From the NCBI GenBank assembly GCA_041158765.1, contig JBEBAU010000018.1:2557-66556 (forward strand): a stretch of 64,000 nucleotides of DNA. Reading direction: 5' to 3'. Shown in pieces: positions 5,343 through 61,874 of this stretch. Position 1 is the stretch's first letter. Each line of letters opens with the position of its first letter. Source of the stretch: Candidatus Parcubacteria bacterium. GTDB taxonomy: Bacteria > Patescibacteriota > Minisyncoccia > Phycocordibacterales > PALSA-1337. The translations under genes and the position numbers were made by a program. Under the pieces are notes generated by a model. It did no database searches. It was not told the origin of the DNA and saw nothing but the letters and a program-made list of their open reading frames with translations.

Positions 5343-5389
5343 TAGTGTGTGAAATTGTATTGCTGTCACGAAGATGGTATCGTTTGCGT

Positions 5390-6538
5390 GTGAAAAATAC
5401 ACAGCAAAAGAAGAAGGTATTCGTGGGAATGTCCGGAGGAGTTGATAGCTCGGTTTCTGCGGCATTGCTCAAACATGCCGGTTACGATGTAACTGGAGTG
5501 TTTATCAAGGTGTGGCAACCTGATTGGATTACCTGTACGTGGAGAGAAGATCGAATTGATGCAATGCGAGTAGCAGCAGTGCTCGGTATCAAATTCGTAA
5601 CGCTCGATCTCGAAGATGTGTATAAACGCGAGGTAGTTGATTATATGATTGCCGAATATCGTGCTGGGCGAACACCAAATCCCGATGTGATGTGTAATCG
5701 GTATGTGAAATTTGGTGGATTTTTTGATTGGGCAATGAAACAGGGTGCTGATTATGTTGCAACGGGACACTATGCACGAATTGTGAAAAAAGAGGGTGTT
5801 GTAGCTGGAAGTGGTGAAAATGCAGACAAAAGAAACGTGGCGATATATGAATTATGTGCAGGAGACGATCGAAACAAAGATCAGTCGTATTTTCTTTGGA
5901 CACTTGGGCAGCGCGAGCTTTCGCACACGCTGTTTCCTGTGGGTGCTATCGAAAAGCCAGCTGTGCGAAAGCTCGCGCATTCTTTCAAACTTCCAACTGC
6001 CACAAAAAAAGATAGCCAAGGCCTTTGTTTCATTGGAAAAATTGATATCAAAGATTTTCTTTCACGATATATTGAAACAAAGCCCGGTATGGTACTTGAT
6101 GAAAAAGGTGAAAAAATCGGCAGTCATGACGGTGCGGTGTTTTTTACGATGGGAGAGCGACACGGTTTCACTATTGATGCCAAGCACAAAACCCCCAATG
6201 ACAATCCGTATTATGTCGTTTCAAAAGATATTGAAAAAAATACCATAACTGTCGCTTCTGGAAAATCAGATACACAGACTTTCATACAAAAAGAGATTAC
6301 TCTTGAGCAAACGAATTGGAATACTGACATCATACCCGTAGCCACTGCCACATATTATGCTCGACCACGATATCGTGCAGCACTCGTACCAATTTCAATT
6401 CAAGATGCCAATAACACAAAAAAGACCACAAGAATTATTTTCACTGAACCACAACAAACACTTTCATCTGGACAATCACTCGTGATATACGCTGACGCTC
6501 AAGGAGAGGTGTGTATTGGTGGAGGAATCATTGCATAA
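5390..6538 (+). CDS. mnmA: tRNA-specific 2-thiouridylase MnmA
   Basis: PP-loop SGGVDSS, plus KVWQPDW and CFIGKIDIKDFL motifs; start placed at in-frame GTG 5390 (VKNTQQKKKVFVGMSGGVDSS); the ORF track's upstream ATG 5345 overlaps mltG. Confidence 0.85.
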   Translation: MKNTQQKKKVFVGMSGGVDSSVSAALLKHAGYDVTGVFIKVWQPDWITCTWREDRIDAMRVAAVLGIKFVTLDLEDVYKREVVDYMIAEYRAGRTPNPDVMCNRYVKFGGFFDWAMKQGADYVATGHYARIVKKEGVVAGSGENADKRNVAIYELCAGDDRNKDQSYFLWTLGQRELSHTLFPVGAIEKPAVRKLAHSFKLPTATKKDSQGLCFIGKIDIKDFLSRYIETKPGMVLDEKGEKIGSHDGAVFFTMGERHGFTIDAKHKTPNDNPYYVVSKDIEKNTITVASGKSDTQTFIQKEITLEQTNWNTDIIPVATATYYARPRYRAALVPISIQDANNTKKTTRIIFTEPQQTLSSGQSLVIYADAQGEVCIGGGIIA

Positions 6539-9250: not shown

Positions 9251-11137
9251 ATGGATACAAAGCTCAGCTCAGCCCAAATACGTTCACGATTCCTCGCTTT
9301 CTTCGAGAAGCGAGGGCATACAATCATACCTTCTGCATCTCTCGTTACGAGCGATGAAAAGGGTGTAACCAATCCTACACTTTTCAACACTGCTGGTATG
9401 CAACCGCTCATACCATATCTTCTTGGTAAGCCATATATTAAGGACGGCGCGACTGTCACTCGTCTTGCTGATTCACAGAAGTGCGTTCGTACTATTGATA
9501 TTGATGATATTGGTGATAAGACACATGCTACTTTTTTTGAAATGCTTGGTAATTGGTCTCTTGGTGATTATTTCAAAAAAGAGGCTATTGAATGGAGTTT
9601 TCAATTCTTAACTAATCCAGTTGATGCCCCGAAGGGTGATGCTGGTCTTGGTCTCAATCCAAACCGTCTTTACGTCAGTGTTTTCGAAGGTGATGCTGTT
9701 GCGCCACGTGATGAAGAAGCAGCTGAAATTTGGCGAGCTATTTTCAAAAAGAATGGTATTGATTTTGGTGGGGATACAACACAAGGTGAAGCTGGTCGCA
9801 TTTTCTATTTGCCTGCAAAAAATAATTGGTGGGAAGCTGGAGACAATGGTCCATGCGGTCCTGATACAGAGATGTTTTATGATGTTGAAAATACATTCGG
9901 TGGCAAGCTTCTCACGCACGCTGAGTATGTGAAGGCTGATGATGAGCGAACCGTGCTCGAGATTTGGAATGATGTATTCATGCAGTATGAAAAGAAGGAC
10001 GGCAAAGTCATCGGCAAACTTCCAAAGCCATCTGTTGATACAGGCGCCGGCCTTGAGCGTCTCACAATGACATTACAGGGTGTGGATAATATTTACGATA
10101 CGGATTTGTTGAAGCCCGTTATGGATCTCATGAAGAATCCAAATGCAGATATTCGTAATAAACGAATAGTTGCAGATCATCTTCGAGCAAGCGTTTTCAT
10201 GATTTCAGATGGTGTTATTCCATCAAATACTGATCGAGGATACATCCTCCGTCGTCTTATTCGTCGCGCGGTTATGAATACAACCGATAAGAAGCTTGAT
10301 GCACCACGAGTGAATGCATTCGTTACTACACTTGTGCAGATTTATGCCGATTCATATCCAGAACTTACGAATGGTGTTGAACAAATAAAAAAAGTTTTAC
10401 TTGAAGAGTGTGAAAAGTTTGCTAAGACACTCGAGCAAGGTATGAAAGAATTCGATAAGGTTACTCAGGGAGTGAGTGAAATTTCTGGTCCTGTTGCTCT
10501 TACACTTTCATCATCATTTGGTCTGCCAATCGATTCGATTGAAGAACTCGCAAAAAGTCATGGTAAAACTGTGAATATCGCAGAATATCTTACAGAATTC
10601 AAAAAACACCAAGACCTCTCTCGTGCGGGTGCAGAACAGAAGTTCAAGGGTGGTCTTGCTGATGCAAATGATCCGATGGTGCTTCGATATCATACAGCTA
10701 CGCACCTTCTTCATCAGGCACTTCACGATGTACTTGGCGAAGAATCAGGGGGTCAGAAGGGTTCGAATATCACCGCTGAGCGATTACGTTTTGATTTCAT
10801 GGGTATCAAGCTTACTGACGAGCAAAAGAAGCGAGTTGAGGATATTGTGAATGAAAAAATTGCCCTCAAATTACCAATGAATAAAGTGGTTCTTCCAAAG
10901 AGTGAGGCAGAGAAGACTGGTGCACGGCATTTCTTTGGTGAAAAGTACGGCGATGAAGTTTCAATTTATTTCATTGGTACTGATCTTGCTCATGCTTACT
11001 CAAAAGAGTTCTGTGGAGGTCCACACGTTACCAATACTGCTGATCTTGCAGGGCCTGAAGGCACGTGGAAATTCAAAATCCAAAAAGAAGAAGCTGTTTC
11101 ACAGGGTGTTCGACGTATCAAAGCTGTTTTGCAGTAA
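9251..11137 (+). CDS. alaS: Alanyl-tRNA synthetase, compact form lacking the C-Ala domain
   Basis: Class II AlaRS catalytic core at the N-terminus; editing-domain motifs HTATHLLHQALHDVLG and CGGPHV; only 628 aa. Confidence 0.85.
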   Translation: MDTKLSSAQIRSRFLAFFEKRGHTIIPSASLVTSDEKGVTNPTLFNTAGMQPLIPYLLGKPYIKDGATVTRLADSQKCVRTIDIDDIGDKTHATFFEMLGNWSLGDYFKKEAIEWSFQFLTNPVDAPKGDAGLGLNPNRLYVSVFEGDAVAPRDEEAAEIWRAIFKKNGIDFGGDTTQGEAGRIFYLPAKNNWWEAGDNGPCGPDTEMFYDVENTFGGKLLTHAEYVKADDERTVLEIWNDVFMQYEKKDGKVIGKLPKPSVDTGAGLERLTMTLQGVDNIYDTDLLKPVMDLMKNPNADIRNKRIVADHLRASVFMISDGVIPSNTDRGYILRRLIRRAVMNTTDKKLDAPRVNAFVTTLVQIYADSYPELTNGVEQIKKVLLEECEKFAKTLEQGMKEFDKVTQGVSEISGPVALTLSSSFGLPIDSIEELAKSHGKTVNIAEYLTEFKKHQDLSRAGAEQKFKGGLADANDPMVLRYHTATHLLHQALHDVLGEESGGQKGSNITAERLRFDFMGIKLTDEQKKRVEDIVNEKIALKLPMNKVVLPKSEAEKTGARHFFGEKYGDEVSIYFIGTDLAHAYSKEFCGGPHVTNTADLAGPEGTWKFKIQKEEAVSQGVRRIKAVLQ

Positions 11138-12460: not shown

Positions 12461-12474
12461 TTTAATATATTTTT

Positions 12475-13845
12475 ATGTCTGAAAAGAAGATGCCACAAGA
12501 TATGGTTCCAAATAATCGTCGATCGATACGTGATATCAAGGTGAAGCTTACACCTATGGATGAAAAGCCTTTGCCACGAGCCAAGGTGACTGTGAAGCCT
12601 CCGCCAGAAGTTAGAGCTGCACGACGAGCAAGTTCAAGTACAGCTTCTGGTTCTGTTTCAAAAAAGAGACATGAATCAAATCGAACTAAGATGGTATTGA
12701 TGTTTGGTATTTTGATATTGTGCATCGGTATTATTCTCGCAGCAATTTCACTTATTTTTTCAAGTGGAACTGTTGTAGTGAAACCTAAGGTGATTTCACT
12801 TGCAGTGAATACATCAGTATCCGCTCGACCGAATGCCGCGAATACCTCTGGTGGGCTTTCATACGAAGTTATTACTGCAACAAAAGACATGTACGCAACT
12901 ATTCCTTCAGTTCCTGGGCCGGCTATTCTCAAAAAAGCTACAGGAACAGTCACTCTATATAACAAATACTCTGCTACACCTCAAAAAATCGTCGCAGGTA
13001 CACGATTGAGCAATACGAAGGGTCTTATATATCGTACACAGACAGCGGTGACAATACCTGCAATGCGGGGAACAGGTAGCAAAGCCGTCGCAGGAAGTGT
13101 TGATGTGAAAGTTATTGCAGATCAAGCTGGTGCAAACTACAATGCGACACTCACAGACCTCACTGGTGATTTCAAAATTGTTGCATATAAGGGTACAACC
13201 AAATACACAACGATATTTGCGCGATCAAAGACCGACTTAGTTGGTGGATACTCAGGTGTAAGTACTGTTCCAGACAAAACTGCTCTTGCTACAACCCAAA
13301 AAGGTCTTTCACAAACACTCAAAGCACAACTTCTCGCAGATTCAAAGACATTGATACCAAAGGGTTATGTTTCATACAATGCCGCAGATCAGATTTCATA
13401 TACTATGATTGATCCAGTTGCGAAGGGTACAAGCAGTGCGTCTGTAGGTGTGAAGGCAACCTATTCAACATATATTTTCAAATCAGTTGATTTGGTTAAT
13501 ACATTTGCAAAAGATCAGGTCGCACAGTTTCCATCAGGAGGATTCACTATCGAGGGTCTTGATGCGCTCAATGTTCAAATTGCTTCTTCAACAGCAGCCG
13601 CTGGATTATCAGCTTCATCATCAAAACCAATTTCATTTGGTTTGAAAGGGGATATCCGTCTTGTCGGTATTGTACCTGTGGATAAGTTGAAGCAAGAGCT
13701 TGTAGGAATAGCCCTTTCCGACACTGCTGGAGTAATAAAACGCTATAGTACAATTGCGAGCGCCTATGCTAAAATATCTCCTGTCTGGATGCGTTCAATG
13801 CCTGATAGTCCAGAGCGTATTACCGTAGAAATTCAGTCAGAATAA
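12475..13845 (+). CDS. Hypothetical bitopic membrane protein (basic cytoplasmic N-terminus, one TM helix, large Thr/Ser/Ala-rich extracytoplasmic domain)
   Basis: TM segment MVLMFGILILCIGIILAAISLIF after a K/R-rich N-terminus; no family recognised. Confidence 0.45.
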   Translation: MSEKKMPQDMVPNNRRSIRDIKVKLTPMDEKPLPRAKVTVKPPPEVRAARRASSSTASGSVSKKRHESNRTKMVLMFGILILCIGIILAAISLIFSSGTVVVKPKVISLAVNTSVSARPNAANTSGGLSYEVITATKDMYATIPSVPGPAILKKATGTVTLYNKYSATPQKIVAGTRLSNTKGLIYRTQTAVTIPAMRGTGSKAVAGSVDVKVIADQAGANYNATLTDLTGDFKIVAYKGTTKYTTIFARSKTDLVGGYSGVSTVPDKTALATTQKGLSQTLKAQLLADSKTLIPKGYVSYNAADQISYTMIDPVAKGTSSASVGVKATYSTYIFKSVDLVNTFAKDQVAQFPSGGFTIEGLDALNVQIASSTAAAGLSASSSKPISFGLKGDIRLVGIVPVDKLKQELVGIALSDTAGVIKRYSTIASAYAKISPVWMRSMPDSPERITVEIQSE

Positions 13846-17718: not shown

Positions 17719-18141
17719 ATGATGACAGCAACCAAAACAACTGAAAAGGGTGAACGATATATCGAAGCAATCGGCCGACGAAAGACCGCTATTGCACGAG
17801 TTCGTATTACACCAGCAACAAAGACAACATACTCTGTAAACGGCAAGGACCTCGAGAAGTATTTCACTATCAAGGAGCAGCTTCTTACAGCAATTGAAGC
17901 AATCAAAACATCAAAGCTTGCTGCTCAATTCAAGATTACTGTTGTTCTCAAGGGTGGTGGTATGAATGCTCAAGCAGATGCTATGCGACACGGTATGGCA
18001 CGTGCTTTCATCGAATACGATAAGCAACTCCGTGGATTGCTCAAGAAGGGAGGACTTCTCAAGCGAGATCCTCGAGCAAAGGAGCGCCGAAAGTTCGGTC
18101 TCAAGAAGGCCCGCAAGTCTCCTCAGTGGAGCAAGCGCTAA
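17719..18141 (+). CDS. rpsI: 30S ribosomal protein S9
   Basis: GRRKTAIARVRI...GGGMNAQADAMRHGMARA...RDPRAKERRKFGLKKARKSPQWSKR canonical S9. Confidence 0.9.
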   Translation: MMTATKTTEKGERYIEAIGRRKTAIARVRITPATKTTYSVNGKDLEKYFTIKEQLLTAIEAIKTSKLAAQFKITVVLKGGGMNAQADAMRHGMARAFIEYDKQLRGLLKKGGLLKRDPRAKERRKFGLKKARKSPQWSKR

Positions 18142-18252
18142 ATGCGCTTGCTCGGCCGGAGCTCGCGTAGGCGAGCGAGGCGGGGTCGCGAGATTTTTCA
18201 GCAGAAAAATACTCGTGACGCAAACGATAGTCCTGACGCAAGCGCTAAACTC

Positions 18253-18283
18253 AAACCCCGCCTATACTGGCGGGGTTTTTGTT
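18253..18283 (+). terminator. Intrinsic terminator (ccccgcc/ggcgggg, loop tatact, TTTTT)
   Basis: Seen in sequence about 110 nt after the rpsI stop; preceded by a GC-rich structured segment. Confidence 0.7.
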
Positions 18284-18338
18284 ATTGTGATAATGTGCGA
18301 TTTGGGATACCAAAATTGTTGTTTGTGAAAGGAAACCT

Positions 18339-32420: not shown

Positions 32421-33050
32421 TCATCGCCATTCGGGCCGGAACAAAAATGTTCCAGTGAGTAGGATAAGAGATCCCTCGGGGGACCCGTCAGCATTCAGTC
32501 GGCTGTAATTCCATCGCCCATTCGCATTCGGCCCGTAATTTCGCCATAGCACTGCTTTTGCAGGCTTGCCAACATTATTCGTGATGGCGAGCTTGTTGAT
32601 TGGGTATGGACTGTCGTGTCCTGCAGAGAGCGAAATGGTTATCGCCGCATCGAGTGCGGGAAGTGTGCACTCAACGATATTCGTATCGCCGAACGACAGC
32701 ACCGAGCTTGGTGCGTTGTTCGGGTTTGCGTCAACCATGATTTTCGACGAGCGAAAATACTGGTTTTGGCTGTTATCGCCGGGGGAATTGTAAGTTCCCT
32801 GGAATGTGGTGCCGGCATTGGTGCCGTTATCCACAAGACCAACACAGTTCCATGTGAACATGTCACTGCTACCTTCAACCGCATAGGCGGAATAGGGTTG
32901 GCAGTTTGATGCGGTCAATGTGACGAACACACGGCCAGCATTCATACTGTCGGGTGTGATCCCGAGGATCGTAATTGTCTGCGCGGGGAGGGCGGACAGG
33001 GTAGCCATCACAAACAATGTGATATACAACCCATACTTTTTGGTTTTCAT
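32421..33050 (-). CDS. Hypothetical secreted protein with a signal peptide, in a GC-rich (about 55%) segment
   Basis: N-terminal MKTKKYGLYITLFVMATLSALPAQT signal; Asn/Gly/Ser-rich mature part; GC far above the window average. Confidence 0.45.
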   Translation of the reverse strand: MKTKKYGLYITLFVMATLSALPAQTITILGITPDSMNAGRVFVTLTASNCQPYSAYAVEGSSDMFTWNCVGLVDNGTNAGTTFQGTYNSPGDNSQNQYFRSSKIMVDANPNNAPSSVLSFGDTNIVECTLPALDAAITISLSAGHDSPYPINKLAITNNVGKPAKAVLWRNYGPNANGRWNYSRLNADGSPEGSLILLTGTFLFRPEWR

Positions 33051-33204
33051 TCGCGGTGTTTCTTTCGTGGTTGGGAGTTGAGGTTTGGAGACGCATTACG
33101 ATCGACGTGAGGCTTAGTGTCGACGCGAGATTGTAAAGGAACAAGGGTTTGTGCTTGCTCAGGTAATATTGTCTCACTTTTAGTGAACATTGTCAATACA
33201 GTGA

Positions 33205-33325
33205 TAAAAAGAATATCCACAAGCTTTGAGAGGGCTTTCGCAGGACATGAAGATGTCCGAGAATGAGCTAGAAAGTCAGCAGACTTTCATAGTGTACCTC
33301 GATAAGCTTGTGGATATTCTTTTTA
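33205..33325 (-). ncRNA. Candidate structured 3'-UTR element, copy 2 (22-bp perfect terminal inverted repeat plus two internal hairpins), transcribed with typA
   Basis: Arms taaaaagaatatccacaagctt (33205-33226) and the exact reverse complement (33304-33325); the right arm overlaps the typA stop codon; internal hairpins gaaagtc/gactttc (loop TGCTG) and ggacat/atgtcc with a UGC bulge; homologous to 37670-37786. Confidence 0.35.
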
Positions 33326-35128
33326 GAGATCTTTTCGCTTTGCTTTTGCGCGGTCGTTGTCGGTGAGGAATTTCTTGCGGAGGCGGACATTCTTTGGAGT
33401 GATTTCAAGATATTCATCTTCACGCATGGTTTCGAGTCCTCGTTCGATATCGAGATCCCAGTGAGGAGTGAGCATGATGTGTTCGTCGTTTCCAGATGAG
33501 CGCATATTGCTCATTGCTTTTGCTTTACATGGATTCACGTCCATATCATCACCCTTCGATGTATCACCAACAACCATACCCTCATAGACATCAGTTGTAG
33601 GACCAATGAAGAGGCGACCACGTTCCTGTAGATTCCAAAGTGCGAAAGCAAGAGCCTTGCCGGTCATCATTGATGTCATAGAACCAGTGCCGTGCTTTTC
33701 GATTTCACCTGCATACGCACGGAATTCAAGGAAACGACTTGAAAGAATACCTTCACCCTTGGTATCAATAACGAAAGCACCTCGATATCCAAGAAGACCT
33801 CGAGTAGGAATTTCAAAAACCATTCGAACCTGATTCTCTTTTGTTTTCATATCCACCATCTGTGCTTTGCGCTTGCCGAGCTTTTCGATAATAACTCCTG
33901 AAGCTGTTTCAGGTGCATCAATAGTGAGCTCTTCGTATGGCTCGCTCTTAATCATTTTGCCATTAGCATCAGCAATGTCTTTCACAATAACTTGTGGCTG
34001 AGAAACCTGAAGTTCATATCCTTCACGGCGCATGTTTTCGAGAAGAACAGCAATGTGAAGCTCTCCACGGCCGAAGACTTTGTAATATTCACTTGATGAA
34101 AAATCTACTTTGAGACCGACGTTGATCTCGAGCTCTTTTTCGAGACGTTCACGGATTTGGCGACCTGTTACGAATTTGCCTTCTTTGCCCGCAAAAGGAG
34201 AGTTGTTAACGAGGAAGTTGAGGGAAATAGTCGGTTCATCAATCTTAATTGTTGGCATTGCAACAGTCTCTTGATTGTCGGTGATAGTTTCACCAATGAA
34301 GATTTCAGGAAGACCTGCAACTACAGCAATGTCTCCTGCTGCGGCTTCTTTGACCTCAACACGCTGCTTACCGGTGAATGTAAACATCTTGGTGATTTTG
34401 CCTGCCATTGTTGAACCATCAACTCGCTTCACGAATACATTCTGACCGTCTCGAAGCATTCCGTCGTACACACGACAAACCGCAAGTCGTCCAAGGAAGT
34501 TATCGTATCCAAGATTGAAAACCTGAGCTTTGAGAGGAAGTGATGCTTGTTCTGGAGTGTTGGCTGGAGGAACGTGTGAAAGGATACAGTCGAGAAGAGG
34601 TTTGAGATCAGTTGCTTCATCAGACATCTTCATCTTTGCAACACCTTGTCGGCCAATAGCGTATACGGTAGGGAAATCAATCTGGCTGTCATTGGCACCG
34701 AGCTCCATGAAGAGTTCGAGCACTGCATCGTGAGTACCATTCACATCTGCAGCTGGCTTGTCGATCTTGTTGATAACAACGATTGGCTTCATACCAAGCT
34801 CGAGAGATTTCTTGAGTACAAAACGTGTCTGTGGCATTGGGCCTTCCTGTGCATCAACAATGAGGAGCACGTTGTCAATTGATCGAAGCACACGTTCTAC
34901 TTCTGAACCGAAGTCGGCGTGACCTGGAGTGTCAACGATGTTGATCTTGGTGCCCTTATATTCAACCGAAGTATTCTTCGCATAAATAGTAATACCGCGC
35001 TCTTGTTCGAGGGCGTTGCTGTCCATTGAACCTTCATCGGTATGACCACATTGAGTCATGATGGCATCGGTCAAGGTTGTCTTGCCGTGGTCCACGTGAG
35101 CGATGATTGCGATATTGCGAATTTCCAT
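33323..35128 (-). CDS. typA: Translational GTPase TypA/BipA
   Basis: G-domain [22 protein letters not shown]; EF-G-like domains; 601 aa. Confidence 0.9.
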
Positions 35129-37395: not shown

Positions 37396-37665
37396 ATGAA
37401 AAAAGACATCCATCCAAAGGACTATCGCCAGGTAATCTTCGTTGATAACTCAAACGGAGCGCAGTTTCTTATTTCTTCTACTATCAAGACAAAAGAAACC
37501 GCAAAGTGGACTGATGGTAAGGAGTACCCATCATATGGTCTCGAAATCACCAGCGCTTCACATCCATTCTATACGAATCAGGAGAAGTCACTCGATGCAG
37601 CTGGACGTGTTGAGAAGTTTAAGAGTCGACAATCAAAGTCTACTGCAGCAAAGAAGAAGGCGTAA
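37396..37665 (+). CDS. rpmE: 50S ribosomal protein L31 (type B, no zinc-binding Cys)
   Basis: [25 protein letters not shown]...[12 protein letters not shown] matches L31. Confidence 0.85.
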
Positions 37666-37669
37666 CGTA

Positions 37670-37786
37670 GAAAAAGAATTAAGTGTTTCTTTTAGGAAAC
37701 GCCGTCAAAATCTGCTGATTTTGCGGCTCGCTCTCGGATGTCAAACATCCTGCGAGAGTCCTAAAAGAAACACTTAATTCTTTTTC
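37670..37786 (+). ncRNA. Candidate structured 3'-UTR element, copy 1 (28-bp perfect terminal inverted repeat enclosing two hairpins), 4 nt after the rpmE stop
   Basis: Arms gaaaaagaattaagtgtttcttttagga (37670-37697) and the exact reverse complement (37759-37786); internal hairpins caaaatc/gattttg (loop TGCT) and ggatg/catcc + ctctc/gagag with a UGC bulge; homolog at 33205-33325. Confidence 0.35.
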
Positions 37787-37823
37787 ATATATACCTTATT
37801 CTTGATACAATAATCTAACGACT

Positions 37824-38912: not shown

Positions 38913-38940
38913 CCCCGCTTCACGGCGGGGTTTCGTTTTG
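38913..38940. terminator. Hairpin ccccgc ttcacg gcgggg + tttcgtttt, overlapping the stop of the minus-strand toxin gene; bidirectional
   Basis: Seen in sequence downstream of prfA. Confidence 0.5.
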
Positions 38941-39345
38941 TATAACACCAAGCAGTATGAAGGATAATTTCGCTACTACTCGATAAAATGTGAGTACTTT
39001 GAGTCTAGAAATTTTACGAAGGAGGCGCTTGCTGCTAATAGTTCTAATTTGCGACAAGATGAGTTGTGAGGTGTCACCGGTGCTTTGAGTTGAAATCCGA
39101 TATTCACTATCAATAATCTTACTCGTGAAGGGGATTACCCACAGTATATCTTTGGTTACCTTTTTTAAGATAAGTACTGGCCGTTCAAAATTTTCATGTT
39201 TCCCGTCTTGTTCAGATCCTACGTTTACACCAAGTGCGCACCACCAGATTTCGCGTTCATGAAAGAAATCCTCGAATTTTTCAAGATCAAGTTTTTTTAT
39301 TCTCGTATTCCATGAGTCAAAATCTTTTATGTAGCTATTATTCAT
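38920..39345 (-). CDS. PemK/MazF-family (Kid-like) endoribonuclease toxin homolog, with no cognate antitoxin gene evident
   Basis: REIWWCALGVNVGSEQDGKHENFERPVLILKK...VIPFTSK aligns to the PemK/Kid core GEIWLVSLDPTAGHEQQGTRPVLIV...VVPVTS; the C-terminal region is also similar. Confidence 0.5.
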   Translation of the reverse strand: MNNSYIKDFDSWNTRIKKLDLEKFEDFFHEREIWWCALGVNVGSEQDGKHENFERPVLILKKVTKDILWVIPFTSKIIDSEYRISTQSTGDTSQLILSQIRTISSKRLLRKISRLKVLTFYRVVAKLSFILLGVIQNETPP

Positions 39346-60459: not shown

Positions 60460-60630
60460 TCTATTAGGTCAGCAAACGGCATTATATACAGAGAAGTCCA
60501 TAATACAGGGCTTATTGCCTATTTTGTTGACTTTTTATTGAAAATATGTTAGTTTAATTGCATGGCTTTTCATGCAAAAAGGCTGAAAAAGTGAGTAATT
60601 TCAAGCTGAAATTGACTCAAAATCGACAAT

Positions 60631-60668: not shown

Positions 60669-61874
60669 ATGAAAAAAATCCGAATCGCACTCATTGGGTG
60701 CGCCGGCCACTTTGGCCGTATCTGGCTCCGCAACCTCTTCACTCTGCAGGGTTACCTGGGCTGCGAGCTGGTTGTCTGCTGTGACGGCAACGTTGCAGCA
60801 TTCGATGAACTCCGTGGAATGTATCCCAGCGTGAAGTTCATGTCGTCTGAACAGTATGATCTCGTGCTTGGCATGTGTGATGCTGTTGTGATTGCGACGC
60901 CTCCGGCGACGCATTTCAAACTTGCAATGAAAGCATTGCAAGCACACAAAGACGTGCTGGTTGAAAAACCACTTGCTTATAGCCCGTCTGAGTGCGAACT
61001 CCTCACGGAATTTGCTGAGAAGCAAGGTTGCATTGTGATGTCCGGTCTGACGTATCTGTATTCTGCAGCATTTCATGCTATCAAGAATATTATTGATACG
61101 AATCAAATAGGCAAAGTCATCCATATTGATTCTCGGCGTGAAAGCTTCGGCCGATACAGTGGTGATAACCATGTCACGCAAGACCTGGGACCTCATGATC
61201 TTTCCATGATTCTCGCGGTTATGGGGGAAATGCCACTTGCGGTCAGCTGCACTGGTCATCAGGACCAGCTTACGGGTCACTACGTTCGCACGAACACGCA
61301 CCTCACCTTCAGTGGCGGTCGAAGTGCGAGCATTATCAGTAGCTGGATTTCAGCCAACATTAAGGTTCGCAAAACCGAGTTCTTTGGAGAAATTGGTGTT
61401 ACGACGTTTGATGATTCACGTGCCAACAACAACGGCAAAGTTGTGTTGCATTCTGGGTTGCGTGTGACGAAAGCGTCACCGAATACTGCACCAGGTGGAC
61501 ATCCCTTCGTGTATCACGCCGGTGCGGCTGAGAAGATGATCGAAGTGGCGGGCGGAGAAAATATTACGAACGAAGCGCGTCACTTTGTCGATTGTATTAA
61601 ACATCGGGAAGTCCCGATATCGGCAGGGGAAGCTGGTGTTGATGTGGCACACATTTTGTTTGCCGCAGAACAATCGCTCGAAATGCATAAGACAATTGGT
61701 CTGCCTCCCGGTATCGCTGGTCGGCACATTGATACGCGTCACCGGAAGCTCGGTCAGCGAACTTCTGCACCTGTGCCTACGTCGCCGGCAGCAGTGCCTG
61801 CCGTGGGACACATTGCAGTCACCAGCAGCGGTGAGCACGACGTGCTCAATGTTCCGGTGAAGGTGCTTCGTTAA
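60669..61874 (+). CDS. Gfo/Idh/MocA-family NAD(P)-dependent oxidoreductase with a Pro/Ala-rich C-terminal tail; GC-rich (about 55%), probably horizontally acquired
   Basis: Rossmann IALIGCAGHFG and EKP motif (VLVEKPLAYS); GC and codon usage clearly differ from neighbours; long antisense ORFs on the minus strand are GC artefacts. Confidence 0.7.
   Translation: MKKIRIALIGCAGHFGRIWLRNLFTLQGYLGCELVVCCDGNVAAFDELRGMYPSVKFMSSEQYDLVLGMCDAVVIATPPATHFKLAMKALQAHKDVLVEKPLAYSPSECELLTEFAEKQGCIVMSGLTYLYSAAFHAIKNIIDTNQIGKVIHIDSRRESFGRYSGDNHVTQDLGPHDLSMILAVMGEMPLAVSCTGHQDQLTGHYVRTNTHLTFSGGRSASIISSWISANIKVRKTEFFGEIGVTTFDDSRANNNGKVVLHSGLRVTKASPNTAPGGHPFVYHAGAAEKMIEVAGGENITNEARHFVDCIKHREVPISAGEAGVDVAHILFAAEQSLEMHKTIGLPPGIAGRHIDTRHRKLGQRTSAPVPTSPAAVPAVGHIAVTSSGEHDVLNVPVKVLR

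Follow-up and report, generated by a model that had tools for sequence, protein, structure and literature searches.

Through analysis of a 64,000-nucleotide stretch of a Candidatus Parcubacteria genome (contig JBEBAU010000018.1, positions 2,557 to 66,556 of the forward strand; this whole stretch is called the window), a family of structured intergenic elements has been identified, one member of which begins at the stop codon of typA. The family is real, structured and previously undescribed, and comprises about 45 copies in Parcubacteria/Paceibacteria and other genomes of the candidate phyla radiation (CPR). It is tentatively proposed, with a confidence that falls a little short of even, that these elements are structured terminator palindromes carrying a module akin to the repetitive extragenic palindromic (REP) sequences, which would terminate typA and could be read from either strand. 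Coordinates given without a locus number are those of the window; loci used for comparison bear numbers preceded by L.

Hairpins after typA and rpmE

The element after typA (copy 2) is a 121-base hairpin at 33205-33325 on the minus strand, directly 3' of the gene, and folds into a three-way junction. Its parts and neighbours are as follows.

33323..35128, minus strand: typA/BipA, 601 aa, Pfam GTP_EFTU and BipA_C; its stop codon opens copy 2
33304..33325, minus strand: 5' outer arm UAAAAAGAAUAUCCACAAGCUU, which carries the A-tract; 33325-33323 is the typA stop
33230..33300, minus strand: inner stem closing the junction, GAGG (33300-33297) paired with CCUC (33233-33230), 4 bp, enclosing hairpins A and B
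33268..33292, minus strand: hairpin A, in which stems of 3 bp and 7 bp are separated by a bulged U (33289) and capped by the tetraloop UGCU (33281-33278)
33237..33263, minus strand: hairpin B, with lower stem UUC/GAA, internal loop UC (33260-33259)/UGC (33242-33240), upper stem GGACAU/AUGUCC and variable loop CUUC
33205..33226, minus strand: 3' outer arm AAGCUUGUGGAUAUUCUUUUUA, complementary to the 5' arm at 22/22 positions, with a U-run at its end
33168..33196, minus strand: promoter-like site (TTGACA, 17 nt, TG-GACAAT; extended -10), beginning 9 nt after copy 2, for the downstream 209-aa open reading frame (ORF) 32421..33050

The 22-bp perfect inverted repeat between 33205-33226 and 33304-33325, reported in a preliminary description of this DNA, has been confirmed, and the TAA codon of typA does supply the first three bases of the element, as stated there. 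Hairpin A (33292-33268) reads CUA-U-GAAAGUC-UGCU-GACUUUC-UAG and hairpin B (33263-33237) reads UUC-UC-GGACAU-CUUC-AUGUCC-UGC-GAA, the two being joined by the linker CUCA. The predicted folding energy is -54.1 kcal/mol (z = -10.2), and none of 200 shuffled sequences folded as well.

The same three-way junction is formed by the hairpin after rpmE (copy 1), on the other strand.

37670..37786, plus strand: copy 1, between rpmE (37396..37665) and prfA (from 37824); its perfect arms are 28 bp long, hairpin A spans 37701-37727 and hairpin B 37731-37756
37784..37811, plus strand: immediately after copy 1, a promoter-like site for prfA whose -10 is extended (TGaTACAAT)

The arms of copy 1, beginning GAAAAAGAAU, are complementary at 28/28 positions, and the 3' arms of copies 1 and 2 both end in UUCUUUUU. 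Hairpin A reads GCCG-U-CAAAAUC-UGCU-GAUUUUG-CGGC and hairpin B reads CUC-UC-GGAUG-UCAAA-CAUCC-UGC-GAG; the fold has an energy of -64.8 kcal/mol (z = -11.8), again unmatched in 200 shuffles. A TGnTAnAAT motif likewise follows the orthologous rpmE copies in L121, L123 and L124. The two hairpins agree in position and in unpaired bases, and their assignment to one element family holds. Their likeness is not due to chance: covariance models built on homologues give copies 1 and 2 scores of 55-60 bits (E ~1e-12).

Extent of the family and covariation

An exact-pattern scan of one genome per species returned 69 stretches, about 25 of which show the full architecture, all of them in CPR genomes (Nomurabacteria, Paceibacterota, Doudnabacteria and metagenome-assembled genomes (MAGs) labelled Saccharibacteria); the other stretches were set aside as chance matches in high-GC genomes. 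The scan and two covariance models, R1 and R2, together gave 32 copies from CPR genomes and the window, R1 having found more divergent copies in the pattern loci and a third copy in the window. Seven further copies were recovered from protein-anchored loci, without any DNA pattern. The elements are mostly 95-135 nt long, contain a conserved module of about 60-75 nt and occur at a density of about one copy per 20 kb. The third copy of the window had been missed in the preliminary description.

18144..18246, minus strand: copy 3, module at 18152-18216, 41 bits (model R2), within the spacer that follows rpsI, in inverted orientation to that gene

Its outer stem pairs GCGCUUGC (18245-18238) with GCAAGCGC (18151-18144), its internal loop is UC/UCC, and a canonical terminator lies beyond it at about 18262-18290 on the plus strand.

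The pattern scan fixed the loop bases by construction, and the protein-anchored copies form the unbiased set from which the conserved architecture is taken. In hairpin A of this set, the tetraloop is U-N-C-U, closed by C-G or G-C, and a bulged U is found 7 bp beneath it; the linker between the hairpins is (G)CUC; and hairpin B has a 2x3 internal loop, 5'-UC opposite 5'-U(G/C)C, flanked by a C-G pair that closes the lower stem and a G-C pair that opens the upper one. A fixed loop in hairpin A was rightly recognised at the outset, although the UGCUG given for it is in fact the tetraloop UGCU closed by a C-G pair, and U-N-C-U across the unbiased homologues. Likewise, the "UGC bulge" of hairpin B is conserved, but it constitutes one side of the 2x3 internal loop; the flanking pair N1-N3' of hairpin B covaries as C-G (13), U-A (9) and A-U (1) only in the internal-loop register.

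Two alignments were evaluated for covariation.

Alignment A4, pattern-anchored: 32 copies, 25 of them distinct; 97.4% of cells paired; double changes at 13/17 pairs; 0/500 shuffles reached the observed value in any of five measures; slid controls 40-54%
Alignment A5, including unbiased copies: 10 copies; 98.2% of cells paired; double changes at 15/17 pairs; slid controls 31-47%

In A5, none of 500 shuffles matched the observed values of paired cells, of cells with double changes or of the covariation score, while the two counts, of pairs and of pair types, were reached in 1/500 and 8/500. Every one of the 10 pairs in hairpin A covaries; the covariation score stands at 0.92 as against 0.25 in shuffles. 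The pattern of covarying stems with fixed loops, bulged U and internal loop, which had been drawn from two copies, is thus borne out by about 45 homologues.

A search of the whole window with Rfam 15 at the gathering threshold returned only one tRNA, and at a permissive E-value copies 1 and 2 gave only spurious matches to miRNA and snoRNA hairpins, far below the thresholds. No description of the family was found in the literature searched on CPR repeats and structured RNAs. Several known structures were considered and rejected. By reading of the sequence, a kink-turn, which has tandem G.A pairs beside a 3-nt bulge, does not fit, with UC rather than GA opposite UGC in either orientation, and neither do twister, the signal recognition particle RNA, 5S, Y RNA or a tRNA-like fold. 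Set against the hammerhead core CUGANGA...GAAA, the CUGCUGA here lies within a hairpin loop and lacks A6, and no Rfam ribozyme model matched the two copies. Integron attC sites belong to cassette arrays near an integrase and carry the cores RYYYAAC...GTTRRRY, absent here, where the ends read AAAAAGAAU...AUUCUUUUU and the neighbours are the core genes typA, rpmE, prfA and rpsI. A phage origin was dismissed, the single pattern match on a 2-kb viral contig (L120) having failed the covariance model.

Two further palindromic features of the window were recorded. At 60565-60620 on the minus strand, in the spacer before the ORF 60669..61874, there is a weak model match (15.5 bits, E ~0.05) whose hairpin resembles hairpin A (GAG-U-CAAUUUC...); it may be a degenerate copy or due to chance. 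A 17-bp perfect inverted repeat (5911-5927/5962-5978, 34-nt spacer) lies inside the long plus-strand ORF 5345..6538.

Position at terminator sites

Among 30 copies, 29 follow a stop codon; 4-5 have convergent genes on either side, and no more than one occupies a divergent spacer. The window copies all follow translation genes, namely rpmE, typA and rpsI, the last gene of rpoA-rplQ-rplM-rpsI. The tendency noted for the first two copies extends to homologues elsewhere, which follow the stops of rpmE, rpsI, rpsT, rpmA/rplI, rplB, smpB, prfA (three times), adk-map (three times) and others; further host sites are the spacer upstream of secE, relA/spoT, parB, polA, dnaB and two genes for class-V aminotransferases.

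The same sites are occupied by plain terminators in element-free relatives. After typA in L116, a plain terminator reads TAAGAAAAAGCCCCGC-aacctc-GCGGGGCTTTTT, and that of L076 is similar; at the same spot in L121 there is a perfect palindrome with 20-bp arms (5530-5577, minus strand); and after rpmE in the element-free L014 the terminator reads AAAAAACGCCC-tttaa-AGGCGTTTTTT. The plain terminators of the clade are long perfect palindromes flanked by A and U, with arms of 20-23 bp, and examples of 12 bp are found in the window. One of them, in L129 (10418-10463, 23-bp arms), takes in the final codons and the stop of the gene before it, its 3' arm thus being an inverted copy of the end of that gene. 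Perfect arms, noted in each copy in the preliminary description, are the usual form of terminators in this clade and so no special property of the element. The AAAAAGAAU shared by the ends of copies 1 and 2 is more plausibly an A-tract belonging to the local terminator than the terminus of an element; relatives with plain terminators read TAAGAAAAAG... or TAAAAAGAAAG... at that place.

Sense copies average 5.9 A in the 8 bases upstream and 5.8 T in the 8 bases downstream, inverted and convergent copies are similar, and the lengths of A-run and U-run are independent of the direction of the host gene. In copies 1 and 2, a stable hairpin with a U-run stands after a stop codon and before the next promoter-like site, as in an intrinsic terminator. 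Because the plain terminators of the clade are similar perfect palindromes at the same sites, the element is best read as a terminator palindrome in which a three-way-junction module appears to replace the loop.

Orientation and strand symmetry

Relative to the gene whose stop precedes, 18 of the 30 copies are in sense orientation and 12 are inverted. The copy between rpmE and prfA is in sense in 7/7 genomes (the window, L121-L124, L013 and L051), in which identity of prfA to the window falls from 86, 83, 81 and 74% (L121-L124) to 56-58% (L013 and L051). The copy after rpsI is inverted in 2/2, the window and the Taylorbacteria locus L129 (about 10455-10560); it is absent from L130 and L131. 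Orientation is constant within each locus and independent of the host gene between loci. Sense and inverted copies of different subtypes stand side by side, convergently, in the adk-map spacer of L039 (3688-3935) and in the spacer of L044 (869-1135) from a DUF541 gene to secE. Flipping of the module by recombination between the arms had been considered as a source of mixed orientation and was dropped as unneeded, since orientation does not change within orthologous sets.

These data bear on the first alternative, according to which the element would be a cis-acting RNA of the mRNA strand, placed in the 3' untranslated region or terminator, for instance as a protein-binding or processing module for stability or read-through, its inverted copies being non-functional or having a second role. 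Such an RNA would be expected to show the strong covariation and the conserved unpaired bases found here, and the majority of sense copies, the richness of the host genes in translation genes and the constancy of the rpmE-prfA copy, in sense over deep divergence and closer to its orthologues than to its paralogues, all agree with it. It does not readily account for inverted copies that score as high as sense ones (78 bits in L050, 79 bits for L039a), nor for the inverted rpsI copy, which is itself conserved in L129 with compensatory changes. The attribution of the covariation to selection on the transcript of the preceding gene, made from copies 1 and 2 alone, fails across the family for the same reason.

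The base pairs give no sign of a preferred strand either. G-U pairs number 53/1512 in the sense fold versus 54/1520 in the antisense fold, a hand tally by host-gene orientation showed no excess on the mRNA strand, essentially none occur even among the all-sense rpmE orthologues, and folding energies show no strand asymmetry. The modules contain G-U in 1/420 cells against 61/1071 (5.7%) in the tRNA stems of the same loci (Fisher p = 2.6e-8). This lack of G-U on either strand also speaks against selection on the mRNA strand, an explanation which is on the whole judged unlikely. Both orientations are in use and the helices stay Watson-Crick whichever strand is read; the conserved feature is therefore most likely a fold that either strand can adopt, and the element is not simply an mRNA signal. 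The copies of L005 and L047, a MAG pair of higher GC, are the only ones with many module G-U pairs on the sense strand (8-10 versus 0-1 on the other strand); they are inverted relative to smpB.

Gain, loss and origin of the arms

No copy was found at 48 metagenomic typA loci (411 kb; 57-90% identical), nor at the typA locus of L121, from Taylorbacteria, a MAG of which is the nearest named relative of the window (86%). The prfA and rpsI products of the window are identical to proteins of an NCBI MAG bearing the name Candidatus Parcubacteria bacterium, and the organism also occurs in JGI 3300042988 and run SRR35181315. With 49 orthologous typA loci lacking the element, copy 2 is probably a comparatively recent gain specific to the lineage of the window. 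Downstream of the typA orthologue in L102 (1570-1700), two hairpins whose loops are CAGCAG and CUGCUG stand next to each other; they were rejected as family members because neither the architecture nor the model fits.

Copy 1 has orthologues in L121-L124, L013 and L051, and is closer to these (CGCCGUC...CGGCUCG) than to its paralogue copy 2, which points to a likely vertical descent rather than homogenisation among copies. In L125-L128 no element separates rpmE and prfA, which abut, 0-24 nt apart. In L128, inverted copies at 11015-11069 (plus strand) and 12472-12526 (minus strand) bracket a 339-aa ORF inserted between prfA and rpsB; the second of them is flanked by an 11-nt direct repeat, TTTAATTTGCA. 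A Pfam scan of the unannotated flanking ORFs, including this 339-aa ORF, gave no match. Between prfA and rpsB, the gene content is different in each of the relatives examined (L121 and L124-L128), and in the window a gene for a PemK/MazF-type toxin (38920-39345, minus strand) lies convergent with prfA.

Between orthologous copies, the arms are unrelated in sequence yet near-perfect, while the module is conserved. The within-genome paralogues L051a/b and L043/L064 have identical cores, and their arms differ by compensated substitutions and one compensated one-pair insertion. The origin of the arms is most apparent at copy 3.

18131-18142 and 18238-18249, plus strand: 12-nt perfect direct repeat GCAAGCGCUAAA (GCAAGCGCTAAA), bracketing copy 3

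The first unit (18131-18142) consists of the last codons of rpsI, S-K-R, and the stop, and no other 12-nt direct repeat with a spacing of 60-140 nt occurs in the whole window. The arm GCGCTTGC (18144-18151) is an inverted copy of this repeat; on these sequence grounds, the arms of copy 3 have demonstrably been copied from the flanking end of rpsI. The same arm can pair with either repeat unit, giving two alternative hairpins.

A second alternative is a non-autonomous transposon of the type of a miniature inverted-repeat transposable element, purely selfish, which would insert between genes with its own terminal inverted repeats and depend on a transposase encoded elsewhere. Its expected traits are partly present: the family is multi-copy and patchy with both orientations, near-identical copies can occur within a genome (L051a/b, L043/L064), two copies are flanked by direct repeats of 11-12 nt, and copies 1 and 2 share the terminal AAAAAGAAU. 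This last trait, however, matches the ancestral terminator A-tract of element-free relatives, and since the arms differ among all copies, even orthologues, no terminal repeats are common to the family. At 36 of the 38 copies there is no significant flanking direct repeat, and none above the shuffle level. Moreover, orthologous copies persist with compensatory changes down to 56-74% identity of prfA, which is unexpected for decaying selfish insertions. A transposon of this kind is accordingly considered distinctly unlikely.

According to a third alternative, the copies would be independent genes of small RNAs with a trans-acting product, their own promoters and an orientation free of their neighbours. 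An orientation fixed per locus and independent of the adjacent genes agrees with this, as does the L129 copy, which lies between two bidirectional terminators and is thereby insulated from flanking transcription; but there is no conserved promoter upstream of the module, copy 3 starts 5 nt past a terminator hairpin on its own strand and has no U-run after it, and known small RNA families show nothing like about one gene copy in every 20 kb with an outer stem that differs from copy to copy. This possibility is regarded as highly improbable. Finally, a chance likeness of two ordinary terminator hairpins, suggested by the A/U-flanked palindromic form which the two share with other terminators of the genome, is refuted by the model scores, by the covarying homologues and by shuffles of which none in A4 reaches the observed values.

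Proposed role of the element

The element may be regarded as built of two layers. The outer one would be a near-perfect palindrome from A-tract to U-tract at or next to a stop codon, followed by the promoter of the next gene, and it has the apparent form of the ordinary intrinsic terminators of bidirectional type in this clade. The inner one, composed of hairpin A, the UC-rich linker and hairpin B, would take the place of the small terminator loop. In cis, as far as the anatomy suggests, the whole hairpin would terminate the typA transcript with a highly stable 3' end, and transcription would start anew for the next gene from its own promoter 9 nt past copy 2. The module itself is presumably a dispersed, duplicating unit that occupies terminator hairpins in either orientation and appears to stay at a locus for long periods with its helices kept Watson-Crick on both strands; it may be read as a folded single strand by some factor. 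The arms would be rebuilt from the local flanks, probably by template switching or by repeated extension or correction of palindromes, as known from quasi-palindrome mutagenesis. This would explain why the arms are different at every locus yet perfect, and both the stop codon inside the arm of copy 2 and the rpsI codons in the arm of copy 3 support it.

Several observations weigh against these proposals. The U-run is paired with the A-tract and not free, and the argument for termination comes from sequence. Four of the 30 copies have the opposite polarity, with the U-run in the 5' arm, and thus cannot be terminators; some inverted copies (copy 3, the second L128 copy and that of L129) adjoin a separate canonical terminator and so are not needed for termination. 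At rpmE, the conservation of a copy in one orientation across deep divergence would be compatible with an RNA function as well. Significant flanking direct repeats are restricted to 2 of 38 copies (copy 3, 12 nt; the second L128 copy, 11 nt), and no gene for a transposase or a REP-associated tyrosine transposase (RAYT) was seen among the scanned flanking genes and Pfam calls, which cover loci of 8-21 kb rather than whole genomes. Furthermore, the plain terminators read in the clade are likewise free of G-U, so that the lack of G-U does not by itself demonstrate recognition at the DNA level and may instead reflect how palindromes evolve in this clade.

It is conceivable, though unlikely, that the module is the recognition element of a machinery which recognises either strand in folded, single-stranded form and places or maintains the module specifically in the apical loops of terminator palindromes in CPR bacteria. 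If true, the family would represent a new class of "terminator-loop" element, distinct from REPs, miniature inverted-repeat elements and riboswitch-like terminator tips; it could be a mobile DNA that homes to terminators or a ribonucleoprotein platform of a new kind.

Comparison with known systems and significance

Among known systems, the family comes closest to a structured repeat of REP type that serves as a terminator, although it does not carry the defining features of REPs and bacterial interspersed mosaic elements (BIMEs). REPs, BIMEs and REPINs are dispersed intergenic palindromes of Proteobacteria and other phyla, lineage-specific and patchy in distribution; REPs for the most part follow coding regions, in either orientation, where the neighbouring ORFs are unidirectional or convergent, they form hairpins in DNA or RNA, and roles in termination and in stabilisation of mRNA 3' ends have been proposed (Di Nocera et al. 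2013, PMC3733652). They are simple hairpins of 20-40 bp with a GTAG or CGTC head and high copy number, the GTAG type being often linked to RAYT (PMC3733652). The present family resembles them in being intergenic, patchy and hairpin-forming, and in lying mostly after ORFs, between unidirectional or convergent genes, in both orientations. In contrast to REPs, what is conserved here is a three-way junction (about 60-75 nt) embedded in a long palindrome that varies. A CGTC precedes hairpin A in the Nomurabacteria-type copies, L015 and copy 3, but not in copy 2, L024, L043 and others, unlike a REP head. Unlike high-copy REPs, the family has about one copy per 20 kb, and the copies of the window differ by many compensated changes.

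With intrinsic terminators of bidirectional type, the family shares the position at a stop codon and before a promoter, the A-tract, the stable stem and the U-tract. Plain terminators have loops of 2-6 nt with no conserved apex, whereas the family has a conserved, covarying module of two hairpins, and a few of its copies, unlike plain terminators, show the wrong A/U polarity or stand beside a separate terminator. Ligand-controlled terminator motifs lie upstream of a defined class of genes in one orientation, in contrast to this family, which follows unrelated genes in both orientations with several copies per genome. Structured miniature inverted-repeat elements that are transcribed into mRNAs, such as the Correia elements of Neisseria, RUP and BOX of pneumococci and the enterobacterial ERIC sequences, are likewise repeats located between genes; they measure about 100-150 nt, give long hairpins when transcribed and can have terminator or processing roles. 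They have conserved terminal inverted repeats and defined target duplications, whereas here the termini vary and the centre alone is conserved.

The CPR, or Patescibacteria, make up a large share of bacterial diversity, and their non-coding elements are almost wholly uncharted. The family is a good candidate for Rfam and offers a handle on how minimal CPR genomes end and insulate their transcription units. Its strand-symmetric Watson-Crick conservation, together with an orientation independent of the host gene, indicates that covariation alone is no proof of a function at the mRNA level. The arms, which would be rebuilt from their flanks including the stop and last codons of the adjoining gene, may serve as a natural system in which the creation and upkeep of palindromes can be studied.

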